Positions 3,001 through 25,924 of a DNA stretch of 26,734 nucleotides are shown piece after piece. Every line of letters begins with the position of its first letter. Position 1 is the first letter of the stretch. The position numbers and the translations under genes were made by a program. The notes below the pieces were generated by a model. That model worked only from the letters and a program-made list of their open reading frames with translations. It was not told the DNA's origin and did not search any database. Source of the DNA: a virus; IMG/VR virus record IMGVR_UViG_3300010885_064671. One strand, written 5' to 3'.

Positions 3001-6000
3001 ACTTTGCCTGAATAAACCAACTACATATAAAAATAAAGCTTTTGGATTTGTAATACTTTCAAAAAGATTCTTATCTTTACTATTTTCGACTGCAGCGGCA
3101 GCAGCTTGAGAACGCTCTATGGCTCTTGCGCGTGCAGCTAAATTTTTTTCACTCTCATAAGTGTTAGCTGCTTTTACTGGACTAAAATTTATTTGTATTT
3201 GAAATAGATTTTCTTTTAATGCTCTTATCTTATCTATCGTAAGTGCATTAAAGTAATTAATTAATCCACCCTGTTCTATTGGTGCATCTATTAAGTTCGC
3301 TCTTGCATATTCTACAGCTTTATTTTGGGCTGGCGTAACTGCATCCCCGAAAAGTAAACTAAATTCATCTATCGCATTACCTACACCGCCAGTAGGATGA
3401 TCTGCTGTTCCTCCAGTTTTAGTTGTTGTATAACCAAATTTCTTAAAAGATTCATAATCTTCTGGAATAGCGTCAGGAGAAAATATCTTTTGGATTTCTG
3501 GGGGAAAAATTTCTTCACTGTCTGGATCCATTGCCAACGTTGCAAAAAATATATCTTTGACAGATTGTTCGGTATGATAGCTAAATCTAAATTCATCCCA
3601 AATTTGCTGAGCTTGAGAAAGTGTTCTGCCGTTGCCTGCTATAACAGAAACTAACGGATCAAAATTTTCATCGTAAAATCTTCTAGCATCTACGGATGTA
3701 GAATCGGTGGCACTATACACCGATGCAAAGTGTACACGAGCATTGTTGCCGTAATCTATCATTTTACCATCTTCTGCCGCTAAAAGCCCTCTACCATATT
3801 CGACGGTCATATCAGCGTATTTTTTGGTTGCAATCTGGTCGTAATAATCACGATAATTACCGCCTTGAGAACCAGAGTCAGCAGAAGGGGCTGTAAATTC
3901 ATTTAGAATATTAGTACCCATACCAGGTTGGAGTAAATTTTCATCCTCTTCATAATAACCGGGTATAACCTGGGTTGAAGTACCACCATTTCCATCTGTT
4001 ATAACAACTACTACTTCTTCCTTAAATACTAACGATATATCAAATGACCCAAAACCTATAATAAAATCTTTTGAATCATCTTTAGCAAGGTTGTTAGTAA
4101 TTTTTTGGTCAGAAGTATATGCAACCCCTAAAGGAATAGTGTTAGGTACAAATGCAAAATGGCATTCTTGTATATCTGGAGTTATCGCATAACCCGGATT
4201 ACCACCACCTGCATCATTACTGTAATTACCTTTTTCATCTAAGCCGCGGTTAGGTGTCGTTAATACCCCAAGATAGTATGCAGCATCGGGTGAAACAACT
4301 GCGGACAAATTTCTCTCTTCATAATCAGGACCAAAACTATCGCTTTTTGGCCTTGATGCTTCTTTAGTGTCATTCTTCCCCCACATAAAATATGCCGGTT
4401 TACAAACTACAGCTGAACCCCTGCCGCTATCACCATTTGGATTATAGACTAAAATGTGTTGATTTTTATAATCTTGCGCAGTTCCTATTAGTTCTGACTC
4501 ATCACCATCAAAGTAATACTTTTTGAAACTACTAATAACCGAAGTATCTTTTGTACTTATATTGTATGGCCATCTCATAGCTATATGAAATTGCTCATCT
4601 ATTTCATTTTCAGGAAATTTCCATTCAGAGTATGGTTTCCACATACTATTATTTTTGAATTCAAATATATCAGGTACAACACCGCTAGAGGGAACTTCCG
4701 GGAAAGGCATTTTAACCGTGATAATATCTGGGAATACTCCATCTATGGGATTAGTGCTAAAGTCCAATGGATTACCTAAGAGTTCTGAAACCATTACACC
4801 AGAAATTCCTTTTTCTGATTGGAAAGATATGTCTAATGACAATAGTTGATTGAACTCTGCTCCATAAACTTTTTCAATTTTTTTTCCTATAAAATTTTTG
4901 TTATCAGATTTATATTCACCAGAAGCTCCGCTATCACCAGACAATTGTGAATATTGGAAAGAATAATTTTCCAGAGATAATTGGTCTTCTACTCTTGAAG
5001 CAAAGAACGGAAATCTAAATCTTGCTGGCAATTGAGGTATCTGCCAATGCCTGTCCTTGGAGTTTACAGATGAGCTAACCTGCTCCGAGCCAACAGGCAA
5101 GTGGAATCCGACTCCCACATTACCTTTTAATGTTGGAAGTTTTGCAACGGGTATTCCTTTATCGTCTAATGCAATTTGAGCTTTTTTTGAATTAAGATTA
5201 ATTAACTTTCCCTTTAATTGTTTGGATGTGTTGAAGATACCGGTAGACAAAAGCTGTGATTCAGTAGAAGCAGAAAGACCAGCAATTGGTTCCGTACTCT
5301 TGAGGAATGCTTCTGCATCTGCATATGGTGTAATATTCTTATTCATTTCTGTAATTATATTTAAAAGATCAAAATCAGGACTATTTATTTGTGGTGGAAT
5401 TATCCCCAATTCTTCGGCCTTGTCATCTCCAGGGTAACCAGTAGTTATTGGGATAACTCCAGAGGTGTATAACCAATGAGGTTTACCATAGAACACGGTT
5501 GACCTATCTTCAAATGGCCTAACAGCAACAATATAATTAGGCAATAACCTTGCGCAAGTCTGAAAGAGTTCCCACACAGTTCTCATGTATGTTTGGGCCC
5601 TAAACGATACCTCATCGAACCCCGGCATGTCGTCGTCTGAATTTGCGGAAACTAAACCTAAAGTTCTAAAAATATTATTTCCACCTCTACCACTCAAAAC
5701 TCCTAGTAAGCCTACACCGATACCAATGGTCGCAGTTACGGGACCACCAGCTATAGCCATAGTCGCCCCTATCCCACCTAGAGATAAGTTTTTGGTTAGA
5801 GTAGCAGAGCCAGTTGGATCTCGTACGGTACCACCACTAGCTGATTGCTCTACTACTTGTGATGATCCAGGAACACCAGAATCCAACTTTACCATTAAAT
5901 TATTCCATGATCTATCTGATAATCTACTTAAATAATCTAGTCTTGGGTTTGGTTGATTTTCTGGCGTTATTGAAGCAACACTTGTCCACCCGTCGCCAAG

Positions 6001-9000
6001 GTCACCACCAAGGAATTGGGCTATCCCTGTACCATTTCCTGGATATATATTTCTTTTAAATATTTCCATATCTCTTTGTGCAGAAAAATTTGCCCAAAGT
6101 TGACCCATCAAAGAAGCTACTGGATACCTAAAATCTTGGCCAACACCAACTGATTGTAGAGCATACTTTGCTATCGTCCCACCACTTAATTCGTTTGCCG
6201 CTTTGTGAGCATCTGCTATTCCATCTACCCTTTTATAATGTTGTGCTTCTTCGCGAGGTGTCATAGGTTGATATAACATTGAACCAAAATGTCTTATACC
6301 GAATTTATTTTCAGAAAAAACTAATCCCCTATTAGCGTTGGCTATACCCTCTTTGAATCTAGACGAACCCATAGATAATAATCTAACCATTAAATCTCTT
6401 GGTTCAGATAACCATAAGCCTGTATTAATACCACCATCTATTTTGCCACTGTCACCTTTTTTATTTGTAGAATTTGCCATAGCTCCAAGCTCTATCGCGT
6501 CTGACTGAGCTGTGATTGTTATTATCTCGCCGTATTCTACTTGGGTTATTGTCCCATTAAATAACGTTTGCAAGCTGTTAGGGTTAGAGCCATAACCCCC
6601 TCTTAAATGGACTCTGACACCTGGCTTTAAAACTATGTTTTCAATATTTACAGTATATTCATTTTTCATATTGCCAAGAATATTTCTTGCCTTGTTTAAT
6701 GTATTGTCTAATATACTTGCTGTTTGGCTACCAAGAAATGTACTTGCAACTTGAGAATCTGGACCAAAGATGTCAGTAGACGCTGCCTTATTTAATTTTG
6801 AATAAAGATTAGAAACTCTAAATATAAAAGTATCACCAAGTAAATCCTCGGAAGATACAACAGAAAAATCTATTATTGATTGCAAACCATAAAAATTATC
6901 AAATAGTTTAACTCCAGCAAAGAAGCCACCTTCGTCTATAAGCCAAAGCATATAGGTGGGGAATGCTCTAATCATTCTACCTGAAAGATCTCTATAGGAA
7001 GTATCAACCAACATTTTTTCCCAATGACTGTTAACTGATGTTGGAGGAGAAGAATTTTTTGAGGAGAATTCTGGTCCACCATTATCTCCGTGAGATATAC
7101 AACTACCATACCCAGAAAGAGGTGTTAGTGATGGTATAGCCGAATTTGTTGTTCCATGTGCTGGGTTCATGTGTTCATCTATACTAGATGGGACTAACTG
7201 CATACTCCTTGTATCTTTGTCTACTTTTACCCCATCAATAGTTAAGTAAAATCTTCCCTCTTTCTCTAAATCCACATAGCCAAAATTGACACCATAGGCC
7301 GTAGTAAGCATTGCGGGTATTTTTCCTGGATCATTTGGATCTTTTATTGGCATCATGTGTATCTGATGATGCGCCGGAAAATCTTCTGGCATAAAGCTAA
7401 CTTCGGTTTCCCCAGGTACACTGTATTCTCCCTCTAGAGCTGATTGAAGTTGGTCAAAAACTTGTTGACCACTAGATTTAAGATCGCCGACTTGAAAGCC
7501 TGCCGAAACAACATTAGTTATATCTATATTGCCGCTAGTTGGATCTTCTATAAATTCTAAATAATCTGTTAAAACTCCTTGGGCGACCTTGTAATCCACA
7601 TCAGTCCCATTACCTTGTGCGTACTGGCTAAATGTTTTCATAAATAAAATATAATCTATATTATTTTCATTTATCCAAGCAGCAATGCCATTGAGTTTGT
7701 TTTTCTTAACTTCTTCATTGTTAATATTATCCCAATTTCTTAAAAAATCAGGAAGATAACTTTTTATTTTTTCTTCTTGGACAGCTAACGCTTTAGAAGA
7801 TGATGTAGGAATGTCTATCTTTTGAGATTGAGTTTTAATATTATTAACAACATCTTTATCAAACATTTCAAAACTTCTGAAATAAAAATCAGGATCTAGA
7901 TTACCAACTATTTCATTTGAACTATTTTTTACGTCCAATGGTAGATCAGGATACGCATTAAACGAACCCCACAATTGTTTAATTCTTAAAAATGGATTTC
8001 TTTTAGCTGCAAAATTATCTATAAAATCTTGCTGTAATTGGGAACTCATTTTTTCCCTTGTTTGCTGGAAGACATCAAAGTCCATTAATGTTATATTCAC
8101 CTCGTAGGCATGAGGATAATCTGGTATTGTAGATATAGAATAGTTGGATGGTATAACATATTTTATACCAGACAATGCTGTTATTATATTTTTTATTCCT
8201 ATAAAACCTAGAACACCTCCCGCATGTTCTAGTCTTGCTAAAGAATTTACATGGTCAAATACTTTTTTTATTTTGGCCAGTTCCATTTCGCCTTTGACAA
8301 TCATTGATATATTTATGAAAGAATCTTTTCCACCTATATGCTGATAGGTCGGCTCATCTTGCATCTGTAATTGTAACTTAGCTAAATTATTTCCAAATGA
8401 TACACTGACACCTTTTACCGTAACATACTTGGGGTCAAGATCCACTTTCATCATTGGGACTTCCCACTCCCTAAATTGGAAAGCTCCGGATTTAGCTCTT
8501 GCAGCTTCCATCAAAGCTTGTATCGGCCCACTATTAAAAAATCTTTCATAAGCCAATACGCTAAAGACATCTGAAACTTCTTTTTTTGCTTGGTTCTTAA
8601 TATCTTGATATCTTGGAGTTCCTTCAGACCCTTCTACGGGCAAATTTACTCCCTCAGCTTTTGCTCTTTTATCCGCAAGCGTTGATATTGTATGATCTAA
8701 ATAAGCCGTCGAACTTTTTGATATCCTCTTTATATAATCTTTAGCGGCTGAAAGAGTACCTTCAAACATTTCACCGTTAACCCTATATGTGCTTGTCCCA
8801 CTTGTACCCGGTGTTGAAGTAGAATTCATGTCTTGAAGATATTTTTTTTCTGCAGCTGCTAAGGATTTATTTTCTATCATAAATACCTTAACTAAATAAT
8901 CATAAATCTTTTTTTGAGAATCATTTCCAGAAACACCAGTAGTTAATATATCCATTGAATCTTTTAATATACTTTTTATGTTTCTATTGTATTGACCGCT

Positions 9001-11280
9001 TGAAGATAGATCGTAAGTATTGGCAAGTGTGATACCGTAATCTGCAGCTTTATTTACGTCGATACCAAAATAGCCTAATATTTGAGAGAAAAAATCTAAG
9101 CCGGCTTGAGAATTTATTAGCTCTTCATTATCTCTTCTAAAAGAACTAGTATCGGGAAGAAATATTTTAGTTTGTGATTCTACTGGAATATAAAAAGTTA
9201 TATTATTTCCATCAGTCCATTCATTAATGACATTTGCATTTAGCCTATCTTGATTATAGGATAGATCAAGGGTTTCATTAAATTTATTGTTGCCGAGCGC
9301 CGGTATCTTTAATTTAGCTTTTTCAGGCAGATTATCAACACCCTTTACATCTGTTGTCTTAAGTAAGAAGTCACCATTAACATAACTATTAATTGAATTA
9401 GCAGCCTTGCCCATATACTGCCTATACTTACCCCAATGTATTGCTTGATTAAAATCACTTATCATAGGCAATAATGGTTTATGATTAAAGTTCAGCAACT
9501 CTATATCTACCGCTAATGCAAAAGGGAAATTGGGTACAGTTTGTATTTGCATACCAGAAAGAGCAACTGCCGTGATACCGTGAACACTATTTAGGTAACT
9601 ATTCCTAATAGGTAAAAATGGTGAATACTTAAATGCTGCTACCAAACCTCTAAGAGAAGAAAGAAATTTATCTATTTTGTTATCTGTATCACCAGATGCA
9701 GAAAAATCTATTACAAAATTATCCTTTAAAACTATTTTGGAAGCATCTTCTATTGATATACCCCAAATCTCTTCATAGTTAGGAAAAAACAATCTTAAAG
9801 TTATAGAAGTTTCTTTAAAGCCAGAGTTGAATTTTGGAGTGTTCTTTTGCCTTAACGCACCACCGGTTAAACTACCAGTTTTAAAAGCTGTATTTACGTT
9901 TATTGACAATGGTGGAATGTAAAAATTTGCTGCGCCTAACCTAAGATGAAAAATATCTGGAGTTTTTGGAGACACACTTTCTCTGTATGGAGAATTATCT
10001 AATATTTCTTTTATTTGCTTAGAAGTATTATTAAAATCAGCGGCAAGTTCAAAAACATCTTGGAAATTTCCAGCTGCATCTGGCCTTACACCAAATGCTG
10101 ATTGCAAACTTTTCTTAAAATCTTCATAGCTATTTATTGTATCTTCTCCGCCGCCGCCTCTTCCCTCGTTTGAGTAATCCGCAGACGCCGCTAAAGCATC
10201 AAAAAAGAATGTTACAATTGAAGGAAAATACATATTTATAGTAGATAAAAGAATAGGGTCTCTAGAAACATTAGCGACCACGAATCCGAGTTGATCTAAC
10301 CAACCAAGATCTTCCATAGGGTTTAAGTAGGTAATCGCAGATTCTTTTACTGCGTCTTCGGATGCCATTCTTCTTTTAGCAAATTCGGCTATTTGTCCTG
10401 CGTAGGTTGCAAGAGTTAAAAGGCCAGATTGTTTTATCTTTGAAAAGATCGCTTCAAACTGCTTAGAGTCCAAATTTCCTGGAGATAAAGCTGGGGTAAC
10501 ATTAATTACATTTGGATTAAATATGGAATAAACTTTTGTCCATTCTGCCATAGATGTAGATCCATCTGGCAATACTGAACCAAATATTAAATTTCTATTC
10601 CATTCTCCAGCCTGTGGATAAATTTTTTCAAATAATTCGTTTAGATAAACAGCGTTTCCTGGGTCGACATTATTTGGATCGGTTGATTTCTCAAATTCTT
10701 CAGATATAAGAACTAGCTCTTCTTTTGCAATAGCACTTAATTGTGATGCAGTTAATGAATTGATACTGGTCTTATATTTTTTCCATATCGATAATCTCTT
10801 GAATAAAGCTTCACCAGCTATATTTATTGCTGGATAATCTGTACTTAAAGTAAAATTTGGTTTTGTTGGCTGCCCAAGCCAAGTGTTATAAAAATATTGT
10901 CTTAATTCTTTTTCTGTTTTTTTATCTCCTGATTGTGCTTGATAATCAATTAAAACCTGGGGACTTATCAAGCTTATAGATTGCCTAGATGAATACACCC
11001 AGTAATTAATACCGAGCCCGTTAGCCCAAACTGAAAAAGCATCTTTTTCATCAAAAACTATAGAATCAATAGGAGTTCCATCTAAGTTTTTTTCACCAGA
11101 AACACTAGATGGTAAGATCCCCGCAGAAAAAAAATCAATTAATTTATAGAAATGTTCTTTATCGGCTTTTTCAGATTCCGGATTAAGAAAATTTATAATT
11201 TGATCAAGATTTGGTAAACCCACCAAATAGACTAAGTAATCTATTGCCTTTTGATTGATTACTGTTTTACTAGAAGCCAT
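1..11280 (-). CDS. Giant multidomain baseplate hub / tail-initiator protein, at least 3760 aa, 3' end outside window
   Basis: ATG at 11280 (MASSKTVINQKAIDYLVYLV), with GGTG just upstream. Many blocks translated by hand in this frame are stop-free, down to base 1 (...ANPDKKEISRVFSILVELMR). An internal stop would have produced a track ORF starting at 11280, and none is listed. Hub-like motifs: LKPGVRVHLRGGYG...LFNGTITQVE, TVWELFQTCARLLP, GEIIVIGNPDIRPYD...FEVEQVIHHFTPELGFVTSI. Confidence 0.9.
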   Translation of the reverse strand, partial: MASSKTVINQKAIDYLVYLVGLPNLDQIINFLNPESEKADKEHFYKLIDFFSAGILPSSVSGEKNLDGTPIDSIVFDEKDAFSVWANGLGINYWVYSSRQSISLISPQVLIDYQAQSGDKKTEKELRQYFYNTWLGQPTKPNFTLSTDYPAINIAGEALFKRLSIWKKYKTSINSLTASQLSAIAKEELVLISEEFEKSTDPNNVDPGNAVYLNELFEKIYPQAGEWNRNLIFGSVLPDGSTSMAEWTKVYSIFNPNVINVTPALSPGNLDSKQFEAIFSKIKQSGLLTLATYAGQIAEFAKRRMASEDAVKESAITYLNPMEDLGWLDQLGFVVANVSRDPILLSTINMYFPSIVTFFFDALAASADYSNEGRGGGGEDTINSYEDFKKSLQSAFGVRPDAAGNFQDVFELAADFNNTSKQIKEILDNSPYRESVSPKTPDIFHLRLGAANFYIPPLSINVNTAFKTGSLTGGALRQKNTPKFNSGFKETSITLRLFFPNYEEIWGISIEDASKIVLKDNFVIDFSASGDTDNKIDKFLSSLRGLVAAFKYSPFLPIRNSYLNSVHGITAVALSGMQIQTVPNFPFALAVDIELLNFNHKPLLPMISDFNQAIHWGKYRQYMGKAANSINSYVNGDFLLKTTDVKGVDNLPEKAKLKIPALGNNKFNETLDLSYNQDRLNANVINEWTDGNNITFYIPVESQTKIFLPDTSSFRRDNEELINSQAGLDFFSQILGYFGIDVNKAADYGITLANTYDLSSSGQYNRNIKSILKDSMDILTTGVSGNDSQKKIYDYLVKVFMIENKSLAAAEKKYLQDMNSTSTPGTSGTSTYRVNGEMFEGTLSAAKDYIKRISKSSTAYLDHTISTLADKRAKAEGVNLPVEGSEGTPRYQDIKNQAKKEVSDVFSVLAYERFFNSGPIQALMEAARAKSGAFQFREWEVPMMKVDLDPKYVTVKGVSVSFGNNLAKLQLQMQDEPTYQHIGGKDSFINISMIVKGEMELAKIKKVFDHVNSLARLEHAGGVLGFIGIKNIITALSGIKYVIPSNYSISTIPDYPHAYEVNITLMDFDVFQQTREKMSSQLQQDFIDNFAAKRNPFLRIKQLWGSFNAYPDLPLDVKNSSNEIVGNLDPDFYFRSFEMFDKDVVNNIKTQSQKIDIPTSSSKALAVQEEKIKSYLPDFLRNWDNINNEEVKKNKLNGIAAWINENNIDYILFMKTFSQYAQGNGTDVDYKVAQGVLTDYLEFIEDPTSGNIDITNVVSAGFQVGDLKSSGQQVFDQLQSALEGEYSVPGETEVSFMPEDFPAHHQIHMMPIKDPNDPGKIPAMLTTAYGVNFGYVDLEKEGRFYLTIDGVKVDKDTRSMQLVPSSIDEHMNPAHGTTNSAIPSLTPLSGYGSCISHGDNGGPEFSSKNSSPPTSVNSHWEKMLVDTSYRDLSGRMIRAFPTYMLWLIDEGGFFAGVKLFDNFYGLQSIIDFSVVSSEDLLGDTFIFRVSNLYSKLNKAASTDIFGPDSQVASTFLGSQTASILDNTLNKARNILGNMKNEYTVNIENIVLKPGVRVHLRGGYGSNPNSLQTLFNGTITQVEYGEIITITAQSDAIELGAMANSTNKKGDSGKIDGGINTGLWLSEPRDLMVRLLSMGSSRFKEGIANANRGLVFSENKFGIRHFGSMLYQPMTPREEAQHYKRVDGIADAHKAANELSGGTIAKYALQSVGVGQDFRYPVASLMGQLWANFSAQRDMEIFKRNIYPGNGTGIAQFLGGDLGDGWTSVASITPENQPNPRLDYLSRLSDRSWNNLMVKLDSGVPGSSQVVEQSASGGTVRDPTGSATLTKNLSLGGIGATMAIAGGPVTATIGIGVGLLGVLSGRGGNNIFRTLGLVSANSDDDMPGFDEVSFRAQTYMRTVWELFQTCARLLPNYIVAVRPFEDRSTVFYGKPHWLYTSGVIPITTGYPGDDKAEELGIIPPQINSPDFDLLNIITEMNKNITPYADAEAFLKSTEPIAGLSASTESQLLSTGIFNTSKQLKGKLINLNSKKAQIALDDKGIPVAKLPTLKGNVGVGFHLPVGSEQVSSSVNSKDRHWQIPQLPARFRFPFFASRVEDQLSLENYSFQYSQLSGDSGASGEYKSDNKNFIGKKIEKVYGAEFNQLLSLDISFQSEKGISGVMVSELLGNPLDFSTNPIDGVFPDIITVKMPFPEVPSSGVVPDIFEFKNNSMWKPYSEWKFPENEIDEQFHIAMRWPYNISTKDTSVISSFKKYYFDGDESELIGTAQDYKNQHILVYNPNGDSGRGSAVVCKPAYFMWGKNDTKEASRPKSDSFGPDYEERNLSAVVSPDAAYYLGVLTTPNRGLDEKGNYSNDAGGGNPGYAITPDIQECHFAFVPNTIPLGVAYTSDQKITNNLAKDDSKDFIIGFGSFDISLVFKEEVVVVITDGNGGTSTQVIPGYYEEDENLLQPGMGTNILNEFTAPSADSGSQGGNYRDYYDQIATKKYADMTVEYGRGLLAAEDGKMIDYGNNARVHFASVYSATDSTSVDARRFYDENFDPLVSVIAGNGRTLSQAQQIWDEFRFSYHTEQSVKDIFFATLAMDPDSEEIFPPEIQKIFSPDAIPEDYESFKKFGYTTTKTGGTADHPTGGVGNAIDEFSLLFGDAVTPAQNKAVEYARANLIDAPIEQGGLINYFNALTIDKIRALKENLFQIQINFSPVKAANTYESEKNLAARARAIERSQAAAAAVENSKDKNLFESITNPKALFLYVVGLFRQSLWSDPYARAWLVLKPDRKIFVDAKVETIWSFKPVNPIFQAFIFPGNTYAKDKSQFIQLLYKNKGEGNSSTNLVSKGLTSLGDFYQQSIGQVFNAVTDSLSALFQMFKLNMLQTGYGLSQSSILAREANILNKALNDSIFYSMGRPGSLLRAVDNPFTREYAEPVIEIREPFQRIHYLSSFSHILSNRIQESSGVATTITAVSDGKSPVTVALDKGAPADRQVEATVETGIYFDNVVGNGFFGFLHPLLHPFETGRGISKNLTGAPDELSAKRIALSHLKESVKDIYGGEIIVIGNPDIRPYDLVYLADVYERMYGMFEVEQVIHHFTPELGFVTSITPNALVTVNDPAKWFMTSWLHSWLNVQTIRNDTRIYLDSIRAGNSGITMGDEISLDALGNSLTPQMMGGMQFTGGSSALTKDVIANVTASGMTNTGLGNQIRMQAQVNGNNGQITGGNIAAVIAGTAGMAVATGGAVSAGISGAAAVAAGTVAGVGAAPIIAGAAIIAGPLVWKAWSWVRDKLLDQHGCYIQYLTRNGQPMEAGLSYNQGMVVGRYHSISLLPGILGVRTKTLSPDGYQYIRTNDLMKSMGWSEKDTNNFVRYVSYENALVHAQVLGLSGLGPDKTTFEPFFKVLCTLKKGSGFDNSGVTDGDTIIVEDILNPDVTFTVRLDGINVSEKIQIGFTNTALKTGSIIGTNIRYINNKYYATLLTGTQDTYADGTAIKYDTEGFALYKAAQNTLTPESKIDGVRVAGDKVTVTNVGASFDVVGATVLSSSVIDPTYSQSVLNYFTYEISDAQGRALYELALEDKITLIPNKKVFPNIGKGTYFKQVVPGNDLVVEDFGSPGMMATQFVKTALENKTFVVRVKQSRVTGKLETEADFEPNTINNTAEFLKDRYARTLGVIFYNTTQGSLDGIMQKVFEFFRENKFDSAGVSVKFAEMFDAKEDVFGIHYSRIYDKIASKIVDTIDPDLTYQPMINAISANPDKKEISRVFSILVELMR
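289..1068 (-). other. Staphylococcal nuclease (SNase/thermonuclease)-like domain within the giant protein, with a large insertion
   Basis: Ordered motifs VTDGDTIIV (from 1068), VRLDGINVSE (to 979), PGMMATQFVKTALENK (from 474) and KDRYARTLGVIFY (327-289) match the SNase pattern DGDT / RLxGIDxPE / GxxAxxF / DxYGRxL. Confidence 0.8.
1474..1638 (-). other. 55-residue uncharged Gly/Ala-rich hydrophobic segment (putative membrane-inserting hairpin)
   Basis: IAAVIAGTAGMAVATGGAVSAGISGAAAVAAGTVAGVGAAPIIAGAAIIAGPLVW has no charged residue and is followed by KAWSWVRDK. Confidence 0.7.
1981..2496 (-). other. C-terminal half of a T4 gp27 / Mu gp44 / P2 gpD-type hub fold
   Basis: EPFQRIHYLSS...AKRIALSHLKESVKDIYGGEIIVIGNPDIRPYDLVYL...FEVEQVIHHFTPELGFVTSITP fits the GxPxIRPGD...VxxVxHxF...GFxTxI pattern of hub proteins. 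Confidence 0.75.
4261..4590 (-). other. Degenerate RlpA/expansin-like double-psi beta-barrel within the hub insertion
   Basis: HIAMRWPY...ILVYNPNGDSGRGSAVVCKP...DSFGPDYEERNLSAVVSPDAAYYLG resembles the RlpA pattern VxNxxNGRxVVV...DxGP...RxIDLSxxAAxxLG, with AVVS in place of IDLS. Confidence 0.5.
5461..6960 (-). other. N-terminal half of the baseplate hub fold
   Basis: PTYMLWLIDEG...IIDFSVVSSEDLLGDTFIFRVSN...LKPGVRVHLRGGYGSNPNSLQTLFNGTITQVEYGEIITITAQS (6960-6481), then TVWELFQTCARLLPNYIVAVRPFEDRSTVFYG (from 5580). Confidence 0.7.
8071..9960 (-). repeat. Two diverged protein-level repeats with tail-tube/initiator-like character (9960-9481 and 8460-8071)
   Basis: FLPIRNSYLNSVHGITAVALSGMQIQTVPNFPFALAVDIELLNFN aligns with FIGIKNIITALSGIKYVIPSNYSISTIPDYPHAYEVNITLMDFD. 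The second copy has PTYQHIGGKDSFINIS, similar to the PxxQxxG motif of P2 gpU-like tube-fold proteins. Confidence 0.65.
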
Positions 11281-11289
11281 AGTGCACCA

Positions 11290-11750: not shown

Positions 11751-14700
11751 TTAGAATGAACTAGCTACTTCTTGGTATGGGTTTCTTCCCAATTGAGGTG
11801 TTCTACGGTACATAGTAGTGTTGGTATTGAATTTTCCTAAGCCCATCGCATTTTTCCTAAAGTCTTCTACACTACCTCTATCCCCAAATAAATTAACTTT
11901 ATAATTTATTCCAGGGTTATAACTCATAGTGCCAATCTGAGGGAGTTCAGCCATTCTTTGTGGATAATTTTCTTCATATGCGGAACCTCCCGGTAGAAGT
12001 GCTGGACCCTGCATCTGCTCTGGTGTTCTATCACTAAAATGTTGGTATGCAAAGCTTGCTACAACAAGGGCACCAATCCCTAAAGCGGTATTCTTAAATG
12101 TTTTATTTTCATTAAATAATTGTTTTAAACTTCCATCTTTTATAAAATTGGATAGTCTAGTAAAAGTACCTTTATTAGCTACTACATTTTCCCCAGATAA
12201 TACCCTCTCTATATCTTCTGCCACTTTTCCTGAGCTACTAACTGTTGATGCTGGTTGTACTTGAGTAAACTCTGCGCCTGTTTTATATTCTTCCTGTAAA
12301 TTTTCATAGTTAAAATTTGATCTTATTGCATCTATTCTTTCTCTATTTGTTGCTCTTGCCGCAGATACATTGGCCGCACCACCAAAATGGCTTTCTAGTA
12401 TTTTTTCATCCTCAGATAAAAGTGCTAAAATATCTAAATCCTTTGTAGTTGGAAGTGCTGAATTTAAGCGAAATGCTTCTGCGGATCTTTTTTCTATCTC
12501 GTCAATTGGGCCTGTGCCTATATCGTCTATAGTACCTTTTAAATCATCTCTAATTTTTTCATAAAAATCATATCTTCTTTTTGTGCGAGCAGCATTAAAC
12601 ATTTCGGATACCGAACCCTCAGATGTACCATATCTCAATTCATCATATAATAAAGTTGAGCTACTTTGATGAGCTCTTTTTTCCATGGTGTTAATCATCT
12701 GCTCCATAGAAACTCCTGCCCTTCTTGCACCTTCTTGGATATCAGAAAATGCTGCTTCACCCCTTTGCATCTTTCTTAAATCTAGGTCTATACGATCAAT
12801 CTCAGGTAAAGCACTTTCGCCAAAATTTGCTATCCTAGAAATTTCCTCATTATGTTTAGCTATCAAATAGTCAGCTACTCTACCTGAGCCCTCATCATAC
12901 TGATGCCTCAGCAGCGTCGAGTCTAGTAAGTTACCTCTATTGTATAGCCTTTTGGTTGCTGCCATTACAGAAGCAGCCCTTAAACCCTCTGCGCTTATTG
13001 CGGAAGATCCAGCATAAGCGTGGCTGGCATTAGCACCAAAATATTTTATTAAGCTTGCAGAAATCTTTTCGGAATCATCAGAAGCACGCAAGCTATCTAA
13101 TACTTCTTTAAATATAGATTTATCTTGAGCTGTACCTTCTATCGAGCCTATTATCGCATCTTGGAATAGCTTTGCATCTGCTTGATGTAATCTTGTACCA
13201 AGTAACATTTCATCTATTTTTGGCAAATATCTTTCCAGAAAACCTGTTGCATCTTCTCCATTCGCAATCATCTGATTTGCCACTTCTCTGACTATTGCAT
13301 GCTCTGTTCCAATTCTCATTCCCAAATTTCTTATTCCCTGCTCTCCTACATTGGAAATAGGATTTCCTTCTAAATTAGATATTAATTTAAGCGCCTGTGC
13401 TGGGTCAAAGCTGCTTACAGCAGATATATTCATAGCCTTAATTGAACTTGTAGTTATGTCGAATTGATGAAATGCTCCAGAAGCATTTTTGGAAAAGTCA
13501 ATAGCTGTTTCCTGTGCGAATAGGCCAGTTCTAATATTTAATATTTTTTGTATATTACTATCTTGTCCGCCAATTTTATACAATTCTTCTATTAAATCTT
13601 CTGTTTGATTCATTTTAGAACCGATAAGCATAGTTCTATTTACGTATCTTCCCAATAAATCGCCCTCTGCACTTTGAGCAACGTTAAACATTTTTGCGAA
13701 AGTAGACTCCTGGAGTAGACCACCTAATAAATTGTCTCCTCTGTTTGCTTGTATTAATCTATTTAATTCAACAATATTTCTGCTTTCTGCCGCCTTAAGC
13801 AATTGAGAATGTAAAGTGGTATCAATTGCATTAGTGTAATCAGAGGTTTTTAATAAGTCTGTAAATTCATCTAATATTAAAAACCCATCTCCCGTTTTTT
13901 TGCTTTCATCAGTGAAGATCTTATATATGCTCTCTCTAGTGTACTGACCAGTCCCTTGAAGCTCGGAACCTTCACGTTCCATTTGCCTTAGAATCCTCCT
14001 ATTATGAGAACCGGTAACTCCTGTTGCATCTGGGTTTAGGTGGCGTAACCCCATGCCACCTTTGCTCTTTGAAGAATCGTATATTTGTAATATTAATTCT
14101 TCTGCGCTTTCGCTATTAAGGTTTGTGTATTTTTTTTCATTCCACAATACGTCAAACAATTCATCTATTTCTGACGATTGATTGTTTGTTTTATATTCAT
14201 TAAATAAATTTTTGAAATTTTTATCACCAAAATAAGATCTTAAAGTATCTTCATCCAAAATTGCTTTTGCATAAATAGATTCTTGGGGTCCAGAAGGCTG
14301 CCTATACATTCCAAACACCAATCTTTTTTTTCCATTAACCGCCTTATCATTATATGTCATTATTTTAGTTAAAACTTTATCGTCTAAGTCGAAGCCACCA
14401 AGTGATTGATAGAATTTATCAACCATACCAGGACCAAACAATACTCTGCCATCATTAACCCTAAAGTTCATTAACTCAGAAGTAATGTCACCTCCATTTT
14501 CCCCGACAAAATCGACCTGTCCCATAGCTGAAAATGGTTGAGATTGACCACCAAGGTTCGCAGAAGCCTCACTGGATACTGCAAATCTTTTTACATCTGG
14601 AAGTCGAGGCATATACTGATCGATACCCTTTTTACTTTGGACCCTATACATCTCAGAGGCATGCAAACTGGCTATCATATTCATCATTCTTGGTGAATCT

Positions 14701-16178
14701 CTTGGGCTTATTCCAGATTGATGCATTTCAAGAATTTGTTTTGCAAAATCCCTGTTCCTCATAGAAGCCTCAGACATATAGGATGGAAGCCATTCGGATT
14801 CATTGTTGTAAACTGTGTTTCTTAACATGCTTTTTATATCTGATGGTAGCGTACCATTCTCTATGTGACCCCTAAATTCATTCATCATACTATTTGAATA
14901 GGCTCTAATATTCTCCATATCCTCTGGCGTAGAAAATATTTCACCCAAAAAAGATGTTGACACAGCGTCTGCATAAACGCCTGAAGAATTAGAACCAAGT
15001 CCACTTATAACTAATCCATTAAATTTAATACCTAAATCAGATTTTATAGCTTCCTCGTCATAGATGCCGGCAAAACTACTGAATATCCCTCTTGCTCCCC
15101 CTCTGCCTAATTTATCAAAATCCGTAAAGTAAGCTGCCGATTTAAACTGCTCTTCGCCCATGCCTCCTCTTAAAGAAACTTGATATAAATTATTTGCATT
15201 ATCTAAAATATCAGATTGACCAGTCAATTCGTAAAGTTGTTCTTTTAATTTATTTGCATCAGCCAACGATGGAGCTACCCCCGTAGAGCCACCACTTATC
15301 TGATACTGCAATTTTTCAATTTCTAATTTTATCTGATTTTTTTTATACTTTAATATATTAATATTATGTGGAGAAATACCATCAAATTCTTTTCTAATAC
15401 CTTTTACAACTTTTTCTATTGATTGGTATTCATCACTACTTAATTTTTTTCCAAGTTCTTCAAGAAGTTCTTTTGAGCTACTTGATGATTCTATGATAGC
15501 TCTTACATCTGGTCTAGATAAAATGTCGATTGCATCTTGGCCACCTATATTTTTTATTGTATTTCCTATTTCTATATCACTACCTAAAAGTTCATCTATT
15601 AAATTGTATTGTTTCCCATTATGGATTTTTTGATATTCACCATTTTGACCCACCCTAGCTTCCAAGCCCAAATGTTTTTTTAAATAATCTATTCCAGAAT
15701 CTACTCTTAATATACCGTCTTCCATTTTTGTGCCCCCAAAAGAACCTATAATATCTGATTCAGTAATGGTCACATCTCTTTCTGAAAAAAAAGCTCTTAA
15801 ACGTTTTGGAAGTTTGTTTACAAAATCTGACATCTCTCCTGCACTTAACTTATCCTGCAGTTTGTCTACATTCAAAATTCCGCCACCTAATATACGAGTC
15901 ATCATATTAATCTGAGCTGAAGTTAGATTTTTTTCTTCACCAGAAATTAATGCCTTCATGGCTACAAACGTTCCATTTTCCGAGTCGATTATTGGTATAA
16001 ATCCAATGCCACTTTTCTGCAGCTGCTTGGCGGCCTCCGCTGCATTTTGGCCTGATGAAGCTTTTACTGAAATCACTTGGAAGCTTAAGCTACTAGCGTC
16101 TAAGCCTCCTAAGCCTATTCTATTTAAGTTACTCTTTTGTGTCGCAGTAGCACCACTAAATGCATCTTGTATCCCGGC
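11751..16178 (-). CDS. Divergent single-chain two-barrel RNA-polymerase-like protein, main frame (putative virion RNAP)
   Basis: The track start GTG at 16076 lacks a properly spaced RBS, and the frame is open upstream to 16178. Ordered motifs: FDG (15386-15378), QVSLRGGMGEEQFK (R 15170, K 15143), PRLPDVKRFAVSSE, GGFDLDDK (14399-14376), RQP (14303-14295), LLGRYVN (13658-13638), AIDFSK (13505-13488). Confidence 0.7.
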   Translation of the reverse strand, partial: AGIQDAFSGATATQKSNLNRIGLGGLDASSLSFQVISVKASSGQNAAEAAKQLQKSGIGFIPIIDSENGTFVAMKALISGEEKNLTSAQINMMTRILGGGILNVDKLQDKLSAGEMSDFVNKLPKRLRAFFSERDVTITESDIIGSFGGTKMEDGILRVDSGIDYLKKHLGLEARVGQNGEYQKIHNGKQYNLIDELLGSDIEIGNTIKNIGGQDAIDILSRPDVRAIIESSSSSKELLEELGKKLSSDEYQSIEKVVKGIRKEFDGISPHNINILKYKKNQIKLEIEKLQYQISGGSTGVAPSLADANKLKEQLYELTGQSDILDNANNLYQVSLRGGMGEEQFKSAAYFTDFDKLGRGGARGIFSSFAGIYDEEAIKSDLGIKFNGLVISGLGSNSSGVYADAVSTSFLGEIFSTPEDMENIRAYSNSMMNEFRGHIENGTLPSDIKSMLRNTVYNNESEWLPSYMSEASMRNRDFAKQILEMHQSGISPRDSPRMMNMIASLHASEMYRVQSKKGIDQYMPRLPDVKRFAVSSEASANLGGQSQPFSAMGQVDFVGENGGDITSELMNFRVNDGRVLFGPGMVDKFYQSLGGFDLDDKVLTKIMTYNDKAVNGKKRLVFGMYRQPSGPQESIYAKAILDEDTLRSYFGDKNFKNLFNEYKTNNQSSEIDELFDVLWNEKKYTNLNSESAEELILQIYDSSKSKGGMGLRHLNPDATGVTGSHNRRILRQMEREGSELQGTGQYTRESIYKIFTDESKKTGDGFLILDEFTDLLKTSDYTNAIDTTLHSQLLKAAESRNIVELNRLIQANRGDNLLGGLLQESTFAKMFNVAQSAEGDLLGRYVNRTMLIGSKMNQTEDLIEELYKIGGQDSNIQKILNIRTGLFAQETAIDFSKNASGAFHQFDITTSSIKAMNISAVSSFDPAQALKLISNLEGNPISNVGEQGIRNLGMRIGTEHAIVREVANQMIANGEDATGFLERYLPKIDEMLLGTRLHQADAKLFQDAIIGSIEGTAQDKSIFKEVLDSLRASDDSEKISASLIKYFGANASHAYAGSSAISAEGLRAASVMAATKRLYNRGNLLDSTLLRHQYDEGSGRVADYLIAKHNEEISRIANFGESALPEIDRIDLDLRKMQRGEAAFSDIQEGARRAGVSMEQMINTMEKRAHQSSSTLLYDELRYGTSEGSVSEMFNAARTKRRYDFYEKIRDDLKGTIDDIGTGPIDEIEKRSAEAFRLNSALPTTKDLDILALLSEDEKILESHFGGAANVSAARATNRERIDAIRSNFNYENLQEEYKTGAEFTQVQPASTVSSSGKVAEDIERVLSGENVVANKGTFTRLSNFIKDGSLKQLFNENKTFKNTALGIGALVVASFAYQHFSDRTPEQMQGPALLPGGSAYEENYPQRMAELPQIGTMSYNPGINYKVNLFGDRGSVEDFRKNAMGLGKFNTNTTMYRRTPQLGRNPYQEVASSF

Positions 16179-16473
16179 TTAATATTGGTGCGACTTGTGC
16201 GAACCTCGCATTGTATGCGGCAGTTCCTGGTATAGATGCATCTTTAGATATTGTATTAAAATTAGTTAGAAGAACGCTTCCTACTTCTACAAAAGCTTCT
16301 TCAATAGTTTTATGTTTCTTACCAGTAATATTAGAAATGTATGAAATTATTCCGTTAGCATCTTGGTCTATTCTTACTCCACCAGCTCTACCTGTTTCAG
16401 TCGAAAGCAAAGAACTTTGCGCAGCAAAAAGTCTTTTTTTAGGATCAGACCAAATTTTATTTACATCTACCAT
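16156..16473 (-). CDS. Probable N-terminal part of the RNAP-like gene, separated from it by a +1 frameshift
   Basis: The ATG overlaps the upstream stop (TAATG) and has GGAG upstream. Its last codons overlap the open +1 frame (16178-16159) that runs on to 11751. The fused product would be about 1573 aa. Confidence 0.75.
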   Translation of the reverse strand: MVDVNKIWSDPKKRLFAAQSSLLSTETGRAGGVRIDQDANGIISYISNITGKKHKTIEEAFVEVGSVLLTNFNTISKDASIPGTAAYNARFAQVAPILSRDTRCI

Positions 16474-19400
16474 TATCTAACTCCAGCCGATATATCAATG
16501 CCGCTAGAACCAAATGGATTCATTACTGGTGTTACTGTCCCAGATACACCAGAACCATTTAGGAGACTTCTAAGCTTCTGTAAAATATTTCCCTTATCTT
16601 CTTGTTTAGAAAATTGTGGAAAAGATGGATTAGACAAATTAGCTTCTCGCAGCTGTTGAGGATAGTAACCCATTTGAGACATTTCAAGACCCATATTTTG
16701 ACCTATTTTTATTTTTACATGATCCATATTAGTACTAGGATTCCATCCTTCCCAATCCATATCTGGCAGTTCATGCTTGGCGAAATATTCGCCCAGATCT
16801 GGTTTGTCCTCTACCGGCATGCCCCAAGCTGCCTCATATATTCTTCTTTCCAATCTTCCAGAAGTAGACAATATAGCTTTGCGTTCAGACTCTGGGGCAT
16901 TAATCATTTCCGCAAAATGTTCTCTTTTTCTTTTTGGTATTGCAAGACTTAAAGTATCTATTGGTGCACCATAAATATCTGCCCCATACATAGTCCTTTT
17001 AGCTGCTTGAGTATACTGATTGGCATCCATCCCGTTGCCCGATTGCTTAGCCATAGAAGCCAGCCTAGAATACTTAACATAAGTTAACATATCTGAATAT
17101 TCTTCTAAAGCTAATTCCTTCTTTCTAGTCTTTGGAATATACCTTTCACCTGTTATCTTTTCTTTTATATTTGATATTAAAGAAGAAGATAAACCAACAG
17201 CTGCACCAACACCACCAGATAATGCTTTTGCCCTTGGAGTCCTACCTAAGGTGCTACCAATAAATGATAACATACCTGCTGCTGTTATCGGATTTCTATC
17301 TGACGCCTTTTGAATCATTGGCTTTATGAAACTTTCATAAGGTTTTTGCCATTCAGGAAAAGTTGAACCATAAACATTTCGTCTTTCCCAATCTTCTTGA
17401 GCTGTACGCCTTTGAAGAAATTTAGTATTAAATAATGTATCTCTATGTGCTAAATATTCCATGGTTCTTCCAGCATTATATTTAGCGCTAGATAAACCCA
17501 TTTCAGATGCCGTTTTGTCCTTATACTTATAGGGACTAAATTCATATTTTTTTGTAGTTTCAGCTAATCTAGCTCTTATTTCTCCTACCTTTATTCTTTG
17601 ATCTGGTGATAAATTTTGAGAATCTATTGATGAATTTATTTTCTTAAATTGATCCGAATACGGCGCAACATCAGCCAGTATACTTAGCTGATCAAGTAAT
17701 CCATACTTACCAGTAGAATCAGAATTAAGATTATGCAATCTCTCATATCCTACTCCAGGCAATCTTAGCTCACCTTCTTGCACCTTAGTGAAAGGATCGC
17801 CCCTTTGGAAGTCCGTAAAATATTCTGCCCCCGGCAAAAATGGATATTGCTGCCCCATAGTATTTTTTATTGGGTTGATATAATCTATACCAGTTCTTTC
17901 TTTAGGAATAAATCTTCTAACTATTTCAGAAAATTCTAAGTTGCCTAACGCACCTTGTGCAGGTAAGGGAACATCTCCTGCTCCACCTAGATTCAAATCC
18001 CAAAAAGCTCTGCTACTCCCATATGCTTTACTTGATGATTGTAAAGTTGATCTATTAGGTTGAAAATCTTTTTTACCAAAACCAAATTTTTCTCTAAGAC
18101 TAGAAAAACCAAATCCATATATACCGGCCATTTCCTGTGCCCTATAACCAAATTCTCCCAACTGCATAGACCCACTAATTGGTGCACCAGCAGCAACAAT
18201 AGGCGGTGACATTATCCCACGCTGTTTAGTTGGGCCATACGCCATTTCAGCTAAAGGGCCATTTAACCCAGCGATAGATCCCTGAGTTAATACTGATGCA
18301 GTGTTGCGCGGATTACCAGCTGCACTGCTATATCCTGCGTTTATACCAGATATTGCACCGTTACTAAAACCTCCACCCCCTGAACCACCGCCAAACCCAG
18401 ATGAACCGCCCCCTATAGCACCACCGATGTAAGCAGAGCTGTCGTATGCGCCAGATTGACCGACACTCACATAATTAGACAGACCCTGAGTTAATTCATC
18501 AGCATGCATCATCTTTTGTGGCTTTAGTATTCTACCCAAGGTAGCATTCAAAGCTGGTACAGCTGGACCAAATGGGCCAGTAAAATATTCACCAGTTACA
18601 GGATATGGTCTATCTTGATAATGTTTTCTTTCAAATCTATATGGGTCTAATGGTCTAAGTGGAGATATGTCATTGTAGTATAAGAATTTTTCCATTGGGC
18701 TTCCATAGGTATCTGAGGTAAACATTGCCCCAGCCTCTAACCTCTTATACCAAGAAGGCCTATAATAATTTACTTTTCCACCTTTAAACGGAGTGTTACC
18801 AAGAGGCCAAAAACGCCCTTGCCTTATCGGCACCATACCTTCTGTTAACTGCTCTTTCTTTTGCTCAAATGTCATTCCTCCTGGAGTAATCCCAGAAACA
18901 ATTGATCTAGCTTCGACTAATCCACGAGCAGCTTTTGTCGTAAAAAATGGAGAATATATTCTTTGCCCGTTTTCGTCTTTACCATTGGCAGCTCCACCTA
19001 TTGTTCTGTCTACTGTAAGTGCGGTAACGCCTGCTGCATACAGCGGCAATACCCTCTTGCCAACCATTCCCCTCATGTATAAGTCTAGGGGACCTTTATA
19101 TTTGCTAACGTCTAATTGCCCGCCCAATGTTCCAAAGTATCTATTTAATCTTTCTACACCTTGAGACACAGCTGTTGAACCAGTAGAATAGTTTGAAGGG
19201 TCTTTATAAGTCCCTATACCCAAAGCACTCTTTAATGCCCCAAAAGGATTCTTGTCAAATGCTGTCCCAAATGTAGGTGCAAAAGTTATTTTTTGACCAG
19301 AACCAAATGGATCTACACCTAAACTATTTGTTGTATGTGGAGCTGTACCAAAAATCTTTTTGCCAAAAGGAACCAAGGAGGAAAAAGGTTTTCTAACACC

Positions 19401-22400
19401 AGTATTAATTGAGGCAATTGTTCCCTTTGTAAATGGTTCAAAAAGTTTTTTTGCACCGGCGCCAGTAGTTGAACTTAATCTTTCCATCAATTCTGTTACT
19501 GCTGCCCTAGAATTTTCTATAGATGCAGCACTCTGCTTATATGTGGTAAATGCGCTTAAATTAAATAGTGTTGATAAAGCTGCGGCTTGTGCTTCTGCGA
19601 ATTTTGAAGCTGGTAAAGTTTTCTTTAATTGCTGAAGAACACTCTGTATATTAATGAACATCTCATTAACACCAGATCCACCATTACTTAACGCTGCATT
19701 TGTTTGCGAAACATATCTAAATATTTCATTTTTTAATTCATCGACACGAGTAGTAATTGTGGAAGATTTTGCGCTGAGCTCAGACATTCCAGCTGCATCT
19801 GATTTTAGAATATTTTGTATTCTAGAATATGATTTTGTTATAAAACTTGAATCAAGACCTTTAGCTTTAGCTTGCGCTTTAAGCATCGGAATCATGTTGC
19901 CTAGTTGCTGAGCATACTCTTTAGCTTGTTGTGGAGTTTTGATAGAAGAAATTCTGCCCAATCCAGCAATACCAAATGTTTCTGGCATGCTAGTTTCCAG
20001 CTGTGCCATAATTCTATCGTCAAATCCGTAACCAAAAGTGCTTCTTTCAAATGATTCAACGCTTCGCAAAATTTGGGATTCATCATATAAATTACTTGGT
20101 TTCCCTAAATCATCCACCAAAGAATACTTGCCGTCAACTTTATCTAATCTAACCGATTTTCTTTGGCCACCTTCTTTTATTAAAACTTCTTCCCCACTCA
20201 ATAAACGTGAAGTAACACTAGGGTTGTTTATGTCATAAGATCTTTTTCTAAATCTGGAAAATAAATTTAATAAAGAGTTTGGTTGTTCTGCGTCGACATC
20301 CATTGCCCCCTTAAATCTTCTAAGTTTACTTGAGCCAATTTCACCTATATCAGTAACTGATTCGCCACTCAATCCAGAAGCAAAACGAGCCTGCCTGCTA
20401 AGCATTTCCATACTCTGAGTTGGCAAGGGTCTATATGTACCCTTTAGTGTTTTGCCTGAAATTTCACCAGATTGACTGTCAGTAAAGTATGAAGTTATTT
20501 TTCCTTTTGTACCACGAGTGCTGTGCCACATGTGGAAGTCTGCAGTACTTCCGCTCAATTCACCAAAAGGCTGGACAGTCATACCTGGGGAGTATTGAAG
20601 CGGTCCCGCTTTTTTCATTTGAGCAAATGATCTATATCCAAACATGTCTGCTGGATTAATTTTAATTATAGGTACTTGTAACTCGCTAGCAAAAAAATTA
20701 GCTACTTTAGAAAAGGTTGTTTTTACGGCACTGAAGTCTAAGACTTGTCCACTTTTACTTTGATATACGCCGCCTAATTTGTTGAATCCTATAGATCTAG
20801 AAACAGGATCCGACACCGCCATTCTTCCAGCAAGACCACCTATTATTTCCTGCTCTCTCTGTGGAAGATATTTAAAATTTCCCCTTTCTATCGCTTCGCT
20901 TATTAACACGGGCCTTATGCCAAAGATATTTGAATTACCTTCAAATATACCTGAAGTCATTTTTTTATTTCTTACCAAAAATGATCTTAAATCATTGAAG
21001 TTATATGGGTCTAGACCTCTATTGACTAATCCAGATCTGATCAGATCATTAGATACTAAACCTCCACCAGCTTTATTTAATGGTATACCAAGAGATTGTG
21101 CTGTTTTTCTTTGTAAGAATTCTTTTTTTGCGCTGGTAAGGGGACCAACAAAATCTTGATAAGCTGCTTTTTGTGGTTTTAACAACGTAGAAGCAATATC
21201 AACCATATCATTTCTGGCAAATGAATTCCATTGATTGCCAATTTTTGTTGCAAGTGATTTCTTAAATTCTCTACTTGTGAAATATGTATTGGTTTCTTCA
21301 ACTATATTTTGAAAAAACTTTCCGGGTGTTTGACCATCATTTTTTGCTAATTCAAAAAAATTATTATTGAATTCTTTTCCACCTTTTATATTTCTAAATC
21401 TTTCTAAAATTCCCTCAAAGTATTCGTCTCCATCTTTATGTATTCCTGTTTTTCCAAGTGATACACTATTGCTTGGATGAGTTTGGGAGCCTGGAGCGTT
21501 TGTTCTTAATTGCGTTACAAAATTATTTGCTTCTTTTTCGTCTATTCCTTTTGCAATTAATCTTCTAGATAAAAGTTGTCTATACTCTTTATTTTGTTGT
21601 CCTATAAAAAATTCTGATTTAGAAAAACTTTTATCGCCAGGACCACCAGCTCCTAAAATAGAAACTTGACTGGCAAAGCTTGACAATCTACTTGAATACT
21701 GAGATTGTATTTTTTGCATTGCAGCTATAACACTCTCGGCATGGTTGCCAGGGGAACTGGCAGCTAGTAATCTTCCATGAGCAATAGAGTTACCTAATGC
21801 ATCATAGGCTTCCCCAAAGACTCTGAATTGTTGACGCCCTGTTCTAATACCTGAACTCAAACCCCTTAAAGCTGGAATGGAATCAACTAAACCAGCTTTA
21901 TCATTTACGCCAAATGCAAGGGCTTTGGCATAGATGGTGGCTCTTTTTAGTCCTGGGTCTTTTGACGCAGCAGAAGCCCTGTACGCAGCTGTGGCGCCAT
22001 GCCTAGCATCGTATAGTGCTTGGACTATCTTAGGTTGCTCATCAGCACCCATAGCTTTAGCGGCACTAGTAAAAGCCCCTGAAGTTTGTGCGGCCTTCTT
22101 AAGGAAAGCATTACCTGCGGTTGTTGCATCATGGCCAACCTCGGAAAGAATATCAGTAAGATCTAGATAGCCTTTAGCTACCTTTTGTTTTAAGGGACTC
22201 AGACTTGACAGGGAATTCATTGAATACTGGAAGGTATTAAGTGAGCTCTTAGCCGCATTTACAGTGCCACCTAAAATCTCACCTGGCAGCACCATTGTAG
22301 CAATGTTGTTTACTGAAGTTTTTACAAAATCAGTTAATACGTCTGCTGGATTATACCAGTTTACTTTTTTTCTTTTATCATTATTTCCAAATAGTGGATC

Positions 22401-23000: not shown

Positions 23001-23633
23001 CTACTTCATGCCCCATAGCTTTTGAGCGATAGGATCCTGATAGGCTGCTTCACCTGGTTTTTTAGACAGATTATGTCTTGCTTCACTTGTTCTTTCCTTT
23101 AGAATTTCTTCTTCCGGATCAATCAATTGCAGGTTAATATTGCTAGGTTCTACGCCATTTATGCTTTGCTGAATTTCTATAATCTTTTCAGATAAAGCAA
23201 CGTTTTCTGCCAATTGAGAAAAGGTCATCTTGTCTAAATCGCCAGGACTGTATGCATGTATAGTAGCGAGCACAAAGGCCTTCATTAAGCTTCTTACTTC
23301 ATTGGCTTTTTCCCTTTTGCCCTCAAGTATATCTTTAGCTATCTTAGCTGAATAGAAGCCAGAGACATCTACCACCTGCTGGGACAGGGATGATATCAAT
23401 CCAGGAGATAAAGAATTCACATCAAAATCGCTAGGGTAAACAACCGCAGCTGCCAATATGACATCCTCTACATCAGCAGAAGAGTGGTCTTGCGAATTCT
23501 TATATTCTACAATTTTATCGTATTCTTCGAATGTTAATTCCCTAAAAAAGATATCTTTACTTTTTACATTAATACTAAATATAGAACCATATCTTTTTTT
23601 TAGTTCATATAATTGTTCTGGATCCATATTCAA
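23001..23633 (-). CDS. Tail assembly chaperone-like protein, long paralog (start may be ATG 23627)
   Basis: Lies between the tube genes and the tape-measure-position gene. The N-terminal half (LKKRYGSIF...IFFRELTFEEY...VVYP...PGLISSLSQQVVDVSGF) is paralogous to the upstream 167-aa protein. Confidence 0.65.
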   Translation of the reverse strand: MNMDPEQLYELKKRYGSIFSINVKSKDIFFRELTFEEYDKIVEYKNSQDHSSADVEDVILAAAVVYPSDFDVNSLSPGLISSLSQQVVDVSGFYSAKIAKDILEGKREKANEVRSLMKAFVLATIHAYSPGDLDKMTFSQLAENVALSEKIIEIQQSINGVEPSNINLQLIDPEEEILKERTSEARHNLSKKPGEAAYQDPIAQKLWGMK

Positions 23634-24137: not shown

Positions 24138-24172
24138 AATTTCTCCTAATAATAAAACTTAGATCACTGTAC

Positions 24173-24201
24173 ATTCTACACTAGATATTATATATAATCA
24201 A
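24173..24201 (-). promoter_or_regulatory. Candidate sigma70-type promoter upstream of the chaperone genes
   Basis: TTGATT (24201-24196), 17 nt spacer, TAGAAT (24178-24173), in a 66-nt intergenic gap. The AT-rich context lowers specificity. Confidence 0.4.
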
Positions 24202-24203
24202 CT

Positions 24204-25845: not shown

Positions 25846-25870
25846 AACTACCTAACTGTTCCCTAAATGA

Positions 25871-25904: not shown

Positions 25905-25924
25905 CAAATAACTTTTAATACAAC

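Follow-up and report, generated by a model that had tools for sequence, protein, structure and literature searches.

Can a two-barrel RNA polymerase work with the two motifs of its catalytic barrel in reverse order? The question is raised by a 1441-residue open reading frame (ORF) in the 26,734-nucleotide stretch of virus record IMGVR_UViG_3300010885_064671 analysed here (the window). To our knowledge, the beta'-like barrel in which an RxP motif precedes the DxDGD loop is treated as an unchanging core of two-barrel polymerases, cellular and viral alike; in this ORF, a GGFDLDD loop comes first and RQP second. On the strength of sequence and a predicted model, we consider it fairly probable that the product is a DNA-dependent RNA polymerase with two barrels on one chain, likely packaged in the tail and injected, in which beta3-RxP-beta4 likely lies behind the Asp loop and the same active-site residues are used. 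The features of the ORF on which the argument leans are the following:

11751..16076, minus strand: main ORF, 1441 residues, predicted single-chain two-barrel RNA polymerase (from the ORF list and fold matches)
14997..15395, minus strand: beta-like barrel, residues about 228-360, with D232-G233, R303, K312, K345 and a coiled-coil insert
14571..14594, minus strand: strand 495-502 with R497, putative beta1
14436..14489, minus strand: strands 530-541 and 544-547 with a short turn between them, putative beta2 and then beta5
14379..14399, minus strand: GGFDLDD loop with D563, D565 and D566, predicted metal-binding triad (from motif and conservation)
14346..14378, minus strand: strand 567-577, putative beta6
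14256..14330, minus strand: strand 583-593, RQP (R592-P594, nt 14303-14295), E599 and strand 600-605, apparently a displaced beta3-RxP-beta4
13575..13661, minus strand: long helix 806-834 with LGxYVN, which we take to be bridge-helix-like
13491..13529, minus strand: residues 850-862 with ETAID, presumably trigger-loop-like
11973..12089, minus strand: hydrophobic segment close to the C-terminus, conserved, with a GPxLLPGG motif

Within the ORF (sequence RVLFGPGMVDKFYQSLGGFDLDDKVLTK...LVFGMYRQPSGPQE), the polymerase part is predicted to comprise residues 1-880 and is followed by a helical tail and a C-terminal hydrophobic anchor. The order of the motifs is as the earlier note had described it: the codon of D563 (nt 14390-14388) precedes that of R592 (nt 14303-14301) by 29 codons. 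That note had seen no DxDxD after RQP, and this holds more widely, as neither DxDGD nor DxDxD occurs anywhere in the 1441 residues. Its statement that the Arg-to-Asp distance in E. coli beta' is about 35 residues is also right, R425 being 35 residues ahead of D460. No RxP is found in the ORF 25-50 residues upstream of D563, and the nearest, R491, is not conserved.

Motif-seeded searches gave 48 protein matches and 80 loci, 79 of which bear GGFDLDD and are thus selected by the motif; RxP follows the first Asp by 26-35 residues in all 48 proteins and all 79 GGFDLDD loci. To control for this bias, loci were also retrieved through the gene upstream and not through the motif, and the best 80 of 211, many of them near-identical, were used. 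A homolog is present in 76 of these and spans both motifs in 73; D563, D565 and D566 are kept in 73/73, with RxP downstream in every case, and R592, P594 and E599 in all 74 loci that cover the second motif. Also kept are R497 (71/74), the beta-side residues (D232 74/75, R303 67/69, K312 71/74, K345 75/75) and, further downstream, LGxY[VI]N and ExA[IV]D. We take these conserved residues to be the counterparts of the Asp and lysines on the beta side, of R352 and R425 in beta', and of bridge helix and trigger loop. Because the 48 proteins, the 79 loci and the 73 motif-independent loci all agree, the motif order is not due to chance. The two observations that would have spoken against the idea, a canonical RxP upstream or a failure of DxDD and RQP to be conserved together, were not made: the motifs are kept jointly in all 73 loci fetched through the upstream gene, and no conserved RxP lies in the upstream interval. 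Among 286 distinct barrel segments, gathered on the condition of an RxP 23-57 residues downstream, an RxP in the canonical upstream place is found in only four. In four distant members the loop is GGADFDD, GGPDFDD or GGWDLDD, and RxPxxxGE comes after it.

The reversed order is not confined to the tail gene. The source virus record (G000; 171.5 kb, 81% complete, 37% GC, 7 tRNA genes) also encodes a smaller protein:

G000 9007-11640 (locus L321), plus strand: stand-alone paralog of 877 residues with GGHDEDD and then RSP (by homology and fold)

Here RSP comes 27 residues after the first Asp, the profile is collinear with that of the window family (E 1.9e-4), and GGxDxDD followed by RSP is found in all 120 listed of 245 homologs. 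This paralog was matched in 20 of the 46 genomes searched; all 11 records that are at least 90% complete and have the reordered tail gene also carry one of its type, and the 4 complete records without it have a canonical or motif-less gene in the same slot. A third paralog of about 800-920 residues, found in many genomes 10-15 kb from the second (L345-L349, L352-L359) and not found in G000 (81% complete), comes in two subtypes: 5 loci have GGxD[LE]DD...RNP, and 8 have WDQDGD. The DQDGD subtype has an insert before RSP, which in the 5 distinct segments scored lies 51-57 residues downstream, and is the only paralog subfamily with the DxDxD triad spacing. Since it is reordered yet has a full-length loop, the motif order must have changed separately from the length of the loop; the DQDGD register, with the strand directly after D-x-D-G-D, points to D566 as the third Asp of the triad. 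The shortened metal loop proposed in the earlier note is seen as DxDD, but it is a separate and probably later deletion of one glycine, as DQDGD persists in paralogs whose motifs are ordered in the same way. In one further genome (G019; L334, L350), two close stand-alone copies lie ~209 kb apart, with one TAA flagged inside each match.

The paralogs also bear on whether the virion copy transcribes at all. It could be dead or non-transcribing, a structural tail or ejection protein or a nucleic-acid-binding motor, with only the stand-alone paralogs being enzymes; its fast divergence, its frequent gene splits and the missing glycine of canonical loops in DxDD would fit, as would the absence of a polymerase motif from the same-slot proteins of phages 0305phi8-36 (gp146) and MTATph1. 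We find this distinctly unlikely, as residues of catalytic type hardly vary in either barrel at an overall identity of 20-25%, the splits go with a single codon and leave the motifs intact, and DxDD also occurs in the more conserved paralog. Because such residues are near-invariant in all three paralogs, the repurposed, inactive enzyme that the earlier note had offered as its other branch is disfavoured as well.

By fold, the window protein is predicted to be a two-barrel polymerase. The model resembles QDE-1, RDR2 and gp64 over its whole length, with two barrels forming one core, and fold alignments reach residue 870-880, past the second barrel to the bridge helix and trigger loop. The superfamily's beta-like barrel with one acidic and two basic residues is present, as are bridge helix and trigger loop; missing are the DxDxD spacing (i, i+2, i+4) and the RxP upstream of the Asp loop. 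The 877-residue paralog strongly matches the same three folds, domains of the canonical double-psi beta-barrel (DPBB) type align to its beta-like barrel, and its ESM Atlas look-alikes are clusters of RNA-dependent RNA polymerases (RdRPs) at 0.94; with the window core as query, all ESM Atlas leads fall below 0.9. Top VIA matches on the coiled coil 239-295 were discarded as common helical hairpins. Pfam and PHROGs gave no informative family for the 1441-residue ORF and PHROGs none for the paralog, the PF05183 profile matched nothing among the window proteins or across the G000 genome, and PDB sequence searches gave chance matches only.

How, then, might the barrel be wired? Strand topology was deduced from the motifs together with DSSP and the ranges of fold-search matches, not from coordinates. 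DSSP assigns six strands in the predicted model, and their sequence order matches a putative 1-2-5-6-3-4. Dividing the barrel by eye against gp99 of 0305phi8-36 and beta' gives three blocks, beta1-beta2 (A), beta3-RxP-beta4 (B) and beta5-helix-Asp loop-beta6 (C), so that a canonical A-B-C would have become A-C-B. Strands beta2 and beta5, and likewise beta6 and beta3, are antiparallel neighbours in a double-psi barrel; because of this, two hairpins could bridge the new links and the strands could keep their canonical places, with hairpins 2-5 and 6-3 replacing the second psi-loop and the first crossover. R592 would still lie beside D563, D565 and D566, D566 would serve as the third metal ligand following the loss of the glycine, and D232, R303, K312 and K345 would provide the beta-side contacts. 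A likely origin of the arrangement, older than the divergence of the paralogs, is a tandem duplication of the beta3-beta6 block (B-C) from which the outer halves were then lost. The earlier note's rearranged barrel therefore stands as a reordering, most likely an internal block swap, but not as a circular permutation of the whole domain: the 29 residues from loop to RxP fit only a hairpin, and beta1 with R497 stays upstream.

Two analyses failed to confirm the block swap. In hhalign comparisons of the reordered segments with YonO-like, KLEB-like, slot-2 and beta' profiles, all block orders scored near noise and A-B-C did no better than the controls. Covariation, which is weak, supports proximity of beta2 to beta4 and of beta3 to beta4, and the pairs 535-604, 536-603 and 533-605 lean to an antiparallel beta2-beta4. 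Covariation among invariant residues (e.g. D563-R592) was dropped as an artefact of segment selection. Both results would suit an active enzyme whose strands have left their canonical places, as an all-antiparallel six-stranded barrel or through a symmetry switch that puts the Asp loop in the first repeat, and so would the failure of canonical DPBB domains to be picked up by the DxDD barrel. We hold such a different remodelling to be unlikely, since each segment can be matched by eye to a canonical one in gp99 and beta', helix, loop and strand are intact in the DQDGD paralog, and the QDE-1 whole-chain alignment spans both barrels to the bridge helix.

The putative block-swapped enzyme can be set beside known polymerases. 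The best structural matches of the window family belong to the YonO/gp99/eukaryotic RdRP family (QDE-1, RDR2; PF05183), whose DG, R..KG and K motifs, RxP with an acidic residue, bridge helix and trigger loop it shares; in gp99, RxP stands ~44 residues ahead of DxDGD, the reverse of the order in the window. From its sequence, the window family is predicted to work like a YonO/RdRP-type single-chain RNA polymerase while failing two of that family's defining sequence features. In the passages of PMC10770324 covered, Thermus phage P23-45 has a virion RNA polymerase fused to the tape measure (gp96, with DFDGD) and a non-virion one (gp64, with the DxDxD signature), a pair that parallels the window protein and the 877-residue paralog; those passages mention no motif reordering. 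The phages studied here differ: the polymerase has a gene of its own, DxDD comes ahead of RxP, there can be as many as three paralogs, and sequence similarity to the P23-45 proteins is absent. By analogy, the 877-residue paralog is likely the non-virion RNA polymerase; for the window protein, synteny makes a virion role likely. Phi14:2 gp66 of the crAss-like phages keeps the five-residue DxDxD spacing, and its loop, which has no glycine, is active although it crystallised in an inactive shape (bioRxiv 2020.03.07.982082); that preprint nowhere mentions a permutation.

Alternatively, an active two-barrel polymerase might have another job: it could be a primase, copy RNA templates or act as a DNA polymerase, and the three paralogs could share out tasks other than staged transcription. 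RdRPs are the closest folds, there are three paralogs per genome against two in P23-45, and the stand-alone paralogs have Tyr or another residue at the position of R497. However, gp64, gp96 and gp66, to which the fold is closest among phage proteins, are DNA-dependent RNA polymerases, and the RxP arginine, which contacts the ribose in beta', is invariant; we regard this possibility as very improbable.

Related phages carry other proteins in the same slot. KLEB27-3 gp034 (L083:17004-24308) and WH1 gp095 (L084:24593-32140) share with the window protein the SGRF strand (strand 495-502 would be the counterpart of this and of beta' SGRSV), motifs resembling bridge helix and trigger loop, and the C-terminal hydrophobic segment; they differ in the canonical order of their motifs (SGRF...NRYP...ADxDGD), in their length of 2400-2500 residues and in being annotated only as structural. 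A barrel of this type is also found in 6 metagenomic loci, and RxP before DxDxD in 6 more. In gp034 and gp095, tail-module proteins from Bacillus myophages in culture, and in those of relatives (L241-L246, L250, L252-L259), the two-barrel polymerase motifs stand in canonical order and are unannotated. Other slot proteins have no polymerase motifs (gp146, L081:22624-30237; L082:15513-19442; L247), which suggests that some lineages have lost the virion enzyme or put another protein in its place; gp146 is a virion protein by mass spectrometry, according to its record. No sequence similarity to the window protein was detected for gp146, gp034, gp095 or the MTATph1 slot protein, so the slot link is one of synteny only.

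The gene itself is interrupted at its 5' end:

16156..16473, minus strand: ORF of 105 residues, the N-terminus of unsplit homologs, offset by +1 from the main ORF (by similarity)
16173..16176, minus strand: CGGG word at the +1 junction, where one Gly step opens a continuous frame

The short ORF is 35-46% identical to residues 1-100 of 39 homologs. An assembly error at 16176 was rejected: contigs from two other runs, with 53 substitutions each and no gap, have the same offset, and the split recurs at this position in L001/L002 and P0001. Of 57 distinct gene copies, 27 are whole and 30 split. Leaving out junctions with gaps, an in-frame CGG is present in 47 of 47 overlapping +1 junctions, as against 31 CGG per 95,594 codons of the coding parts, and in 1 of 3 other overlapping junctions; the window junction is of the same CGG kind. 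The junction word reads as Gly at two junctions compared to unsplit homologs (L160, L223), and the window junction becomes open once CGGN is taken as Gly. G000 has five candidate CGG junctions, all on the minus strand (near 111339, 66703, 50939 and 41828 among the sites named), and no tRNA-Arg(CCG) was found among its tRNA genes; the gene of the 877-residue paralog has one in-frame CGG, at codon 76. Because all 47 +1 breaks hold a codon that is nearly absent elsewhere, programmed +1 frameshifting is likely, perhaps at a starved CGG codon, and the full protein of about 1575 residues would require such a shift at CGG-G. In L160-L166 there are up to seven breaks, and the gene upstream of the polymerase gene is broken too. 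A 12-kb contig from an RNA run that covers the stretch was discounted as evidence of transcription.

The window is a tail module; its remaining genes, and one more gene of G000, are the following:

1..11280, minus strand: gp147-like baseplate-hub homolog, 3760 residues, extending past the window edge (match to gp147)
11290-11742, minus strand: small basic gene of 150 residues, between the polymerase gene and the hub
16473..22988, minus strand: 2171-residue homolog of 0305phi8-36 virion protein gp145 (blastp E 1e-51)
23001..26626, minus strand: two tail chaperone-like genes (labelled by synteny) and three tail-tube-like genes
G000 21367-21699: WhiB-like regulator (PHROGs match)

The 1441-residue ORF has the gp145-like gene on one side and the gene for the baseplate hub on the other, and the tail-tube genes match 0305phi8-36, KLEB27-3, WH1, Edson and MTATph1; by sequence, the phage is a 0305phi8-36-like myophage. 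Near-identical DNA occurs in freshwater metagenomes, and the WhiB gene suggests an actinobacterial host. Neither the window protein nor the 877-residue paralog has a match among cultured phages, and the motif-seeded search of GTDB genomes found none. The 150-residue basic gene is kept in most loci of the clade and has no family match; a JAB-like and E1/ThiF-like gene pair (G000 25430-27907) and a ferredoxin-like gene (G000 42792-43037) were recognised by eye only.

A search of the mostly open-access literature, supplements excluded, found no reordered two-barrel polymerase, no GGFDLDD, GGHDEDD or DxDD motifs and no CGG-linked +1 shifts in phages. As the motif order is reversed and the loop is usually DxDD and not DxDGD, standard polymerase searches likely miss the lineage; in this blind spot, the proteins escape Pfam and PHROGs as well as sequence searches of the PDB and scans for DxDGD. 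The CGG-linked breaks hint at an unrecognised recoding rule in these phages, and the paralogs, compact at about 800-890 residues and expressible, are possible new transcription tools. A graded series is available, from canonical order in the same slot through reordered DxDGD to reordered DxDD, and the canonical-order slot proteins of cultured Bacillus myophages make the comparison testable in culture. We suggest that the injected virion enzyme would transcribe the first phage genes; that these freshwater myophages run transcription on two to three rewired polymerases of their own with DxDD triads, with the virion enzyme made through programmed CGG +1 frameshifts under a rule spread over many genes of the clade, we would give an even chance. 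If the rewiring is true, a natural and widespread reordered family would mean that the active site depends on geometry and not on chain order.
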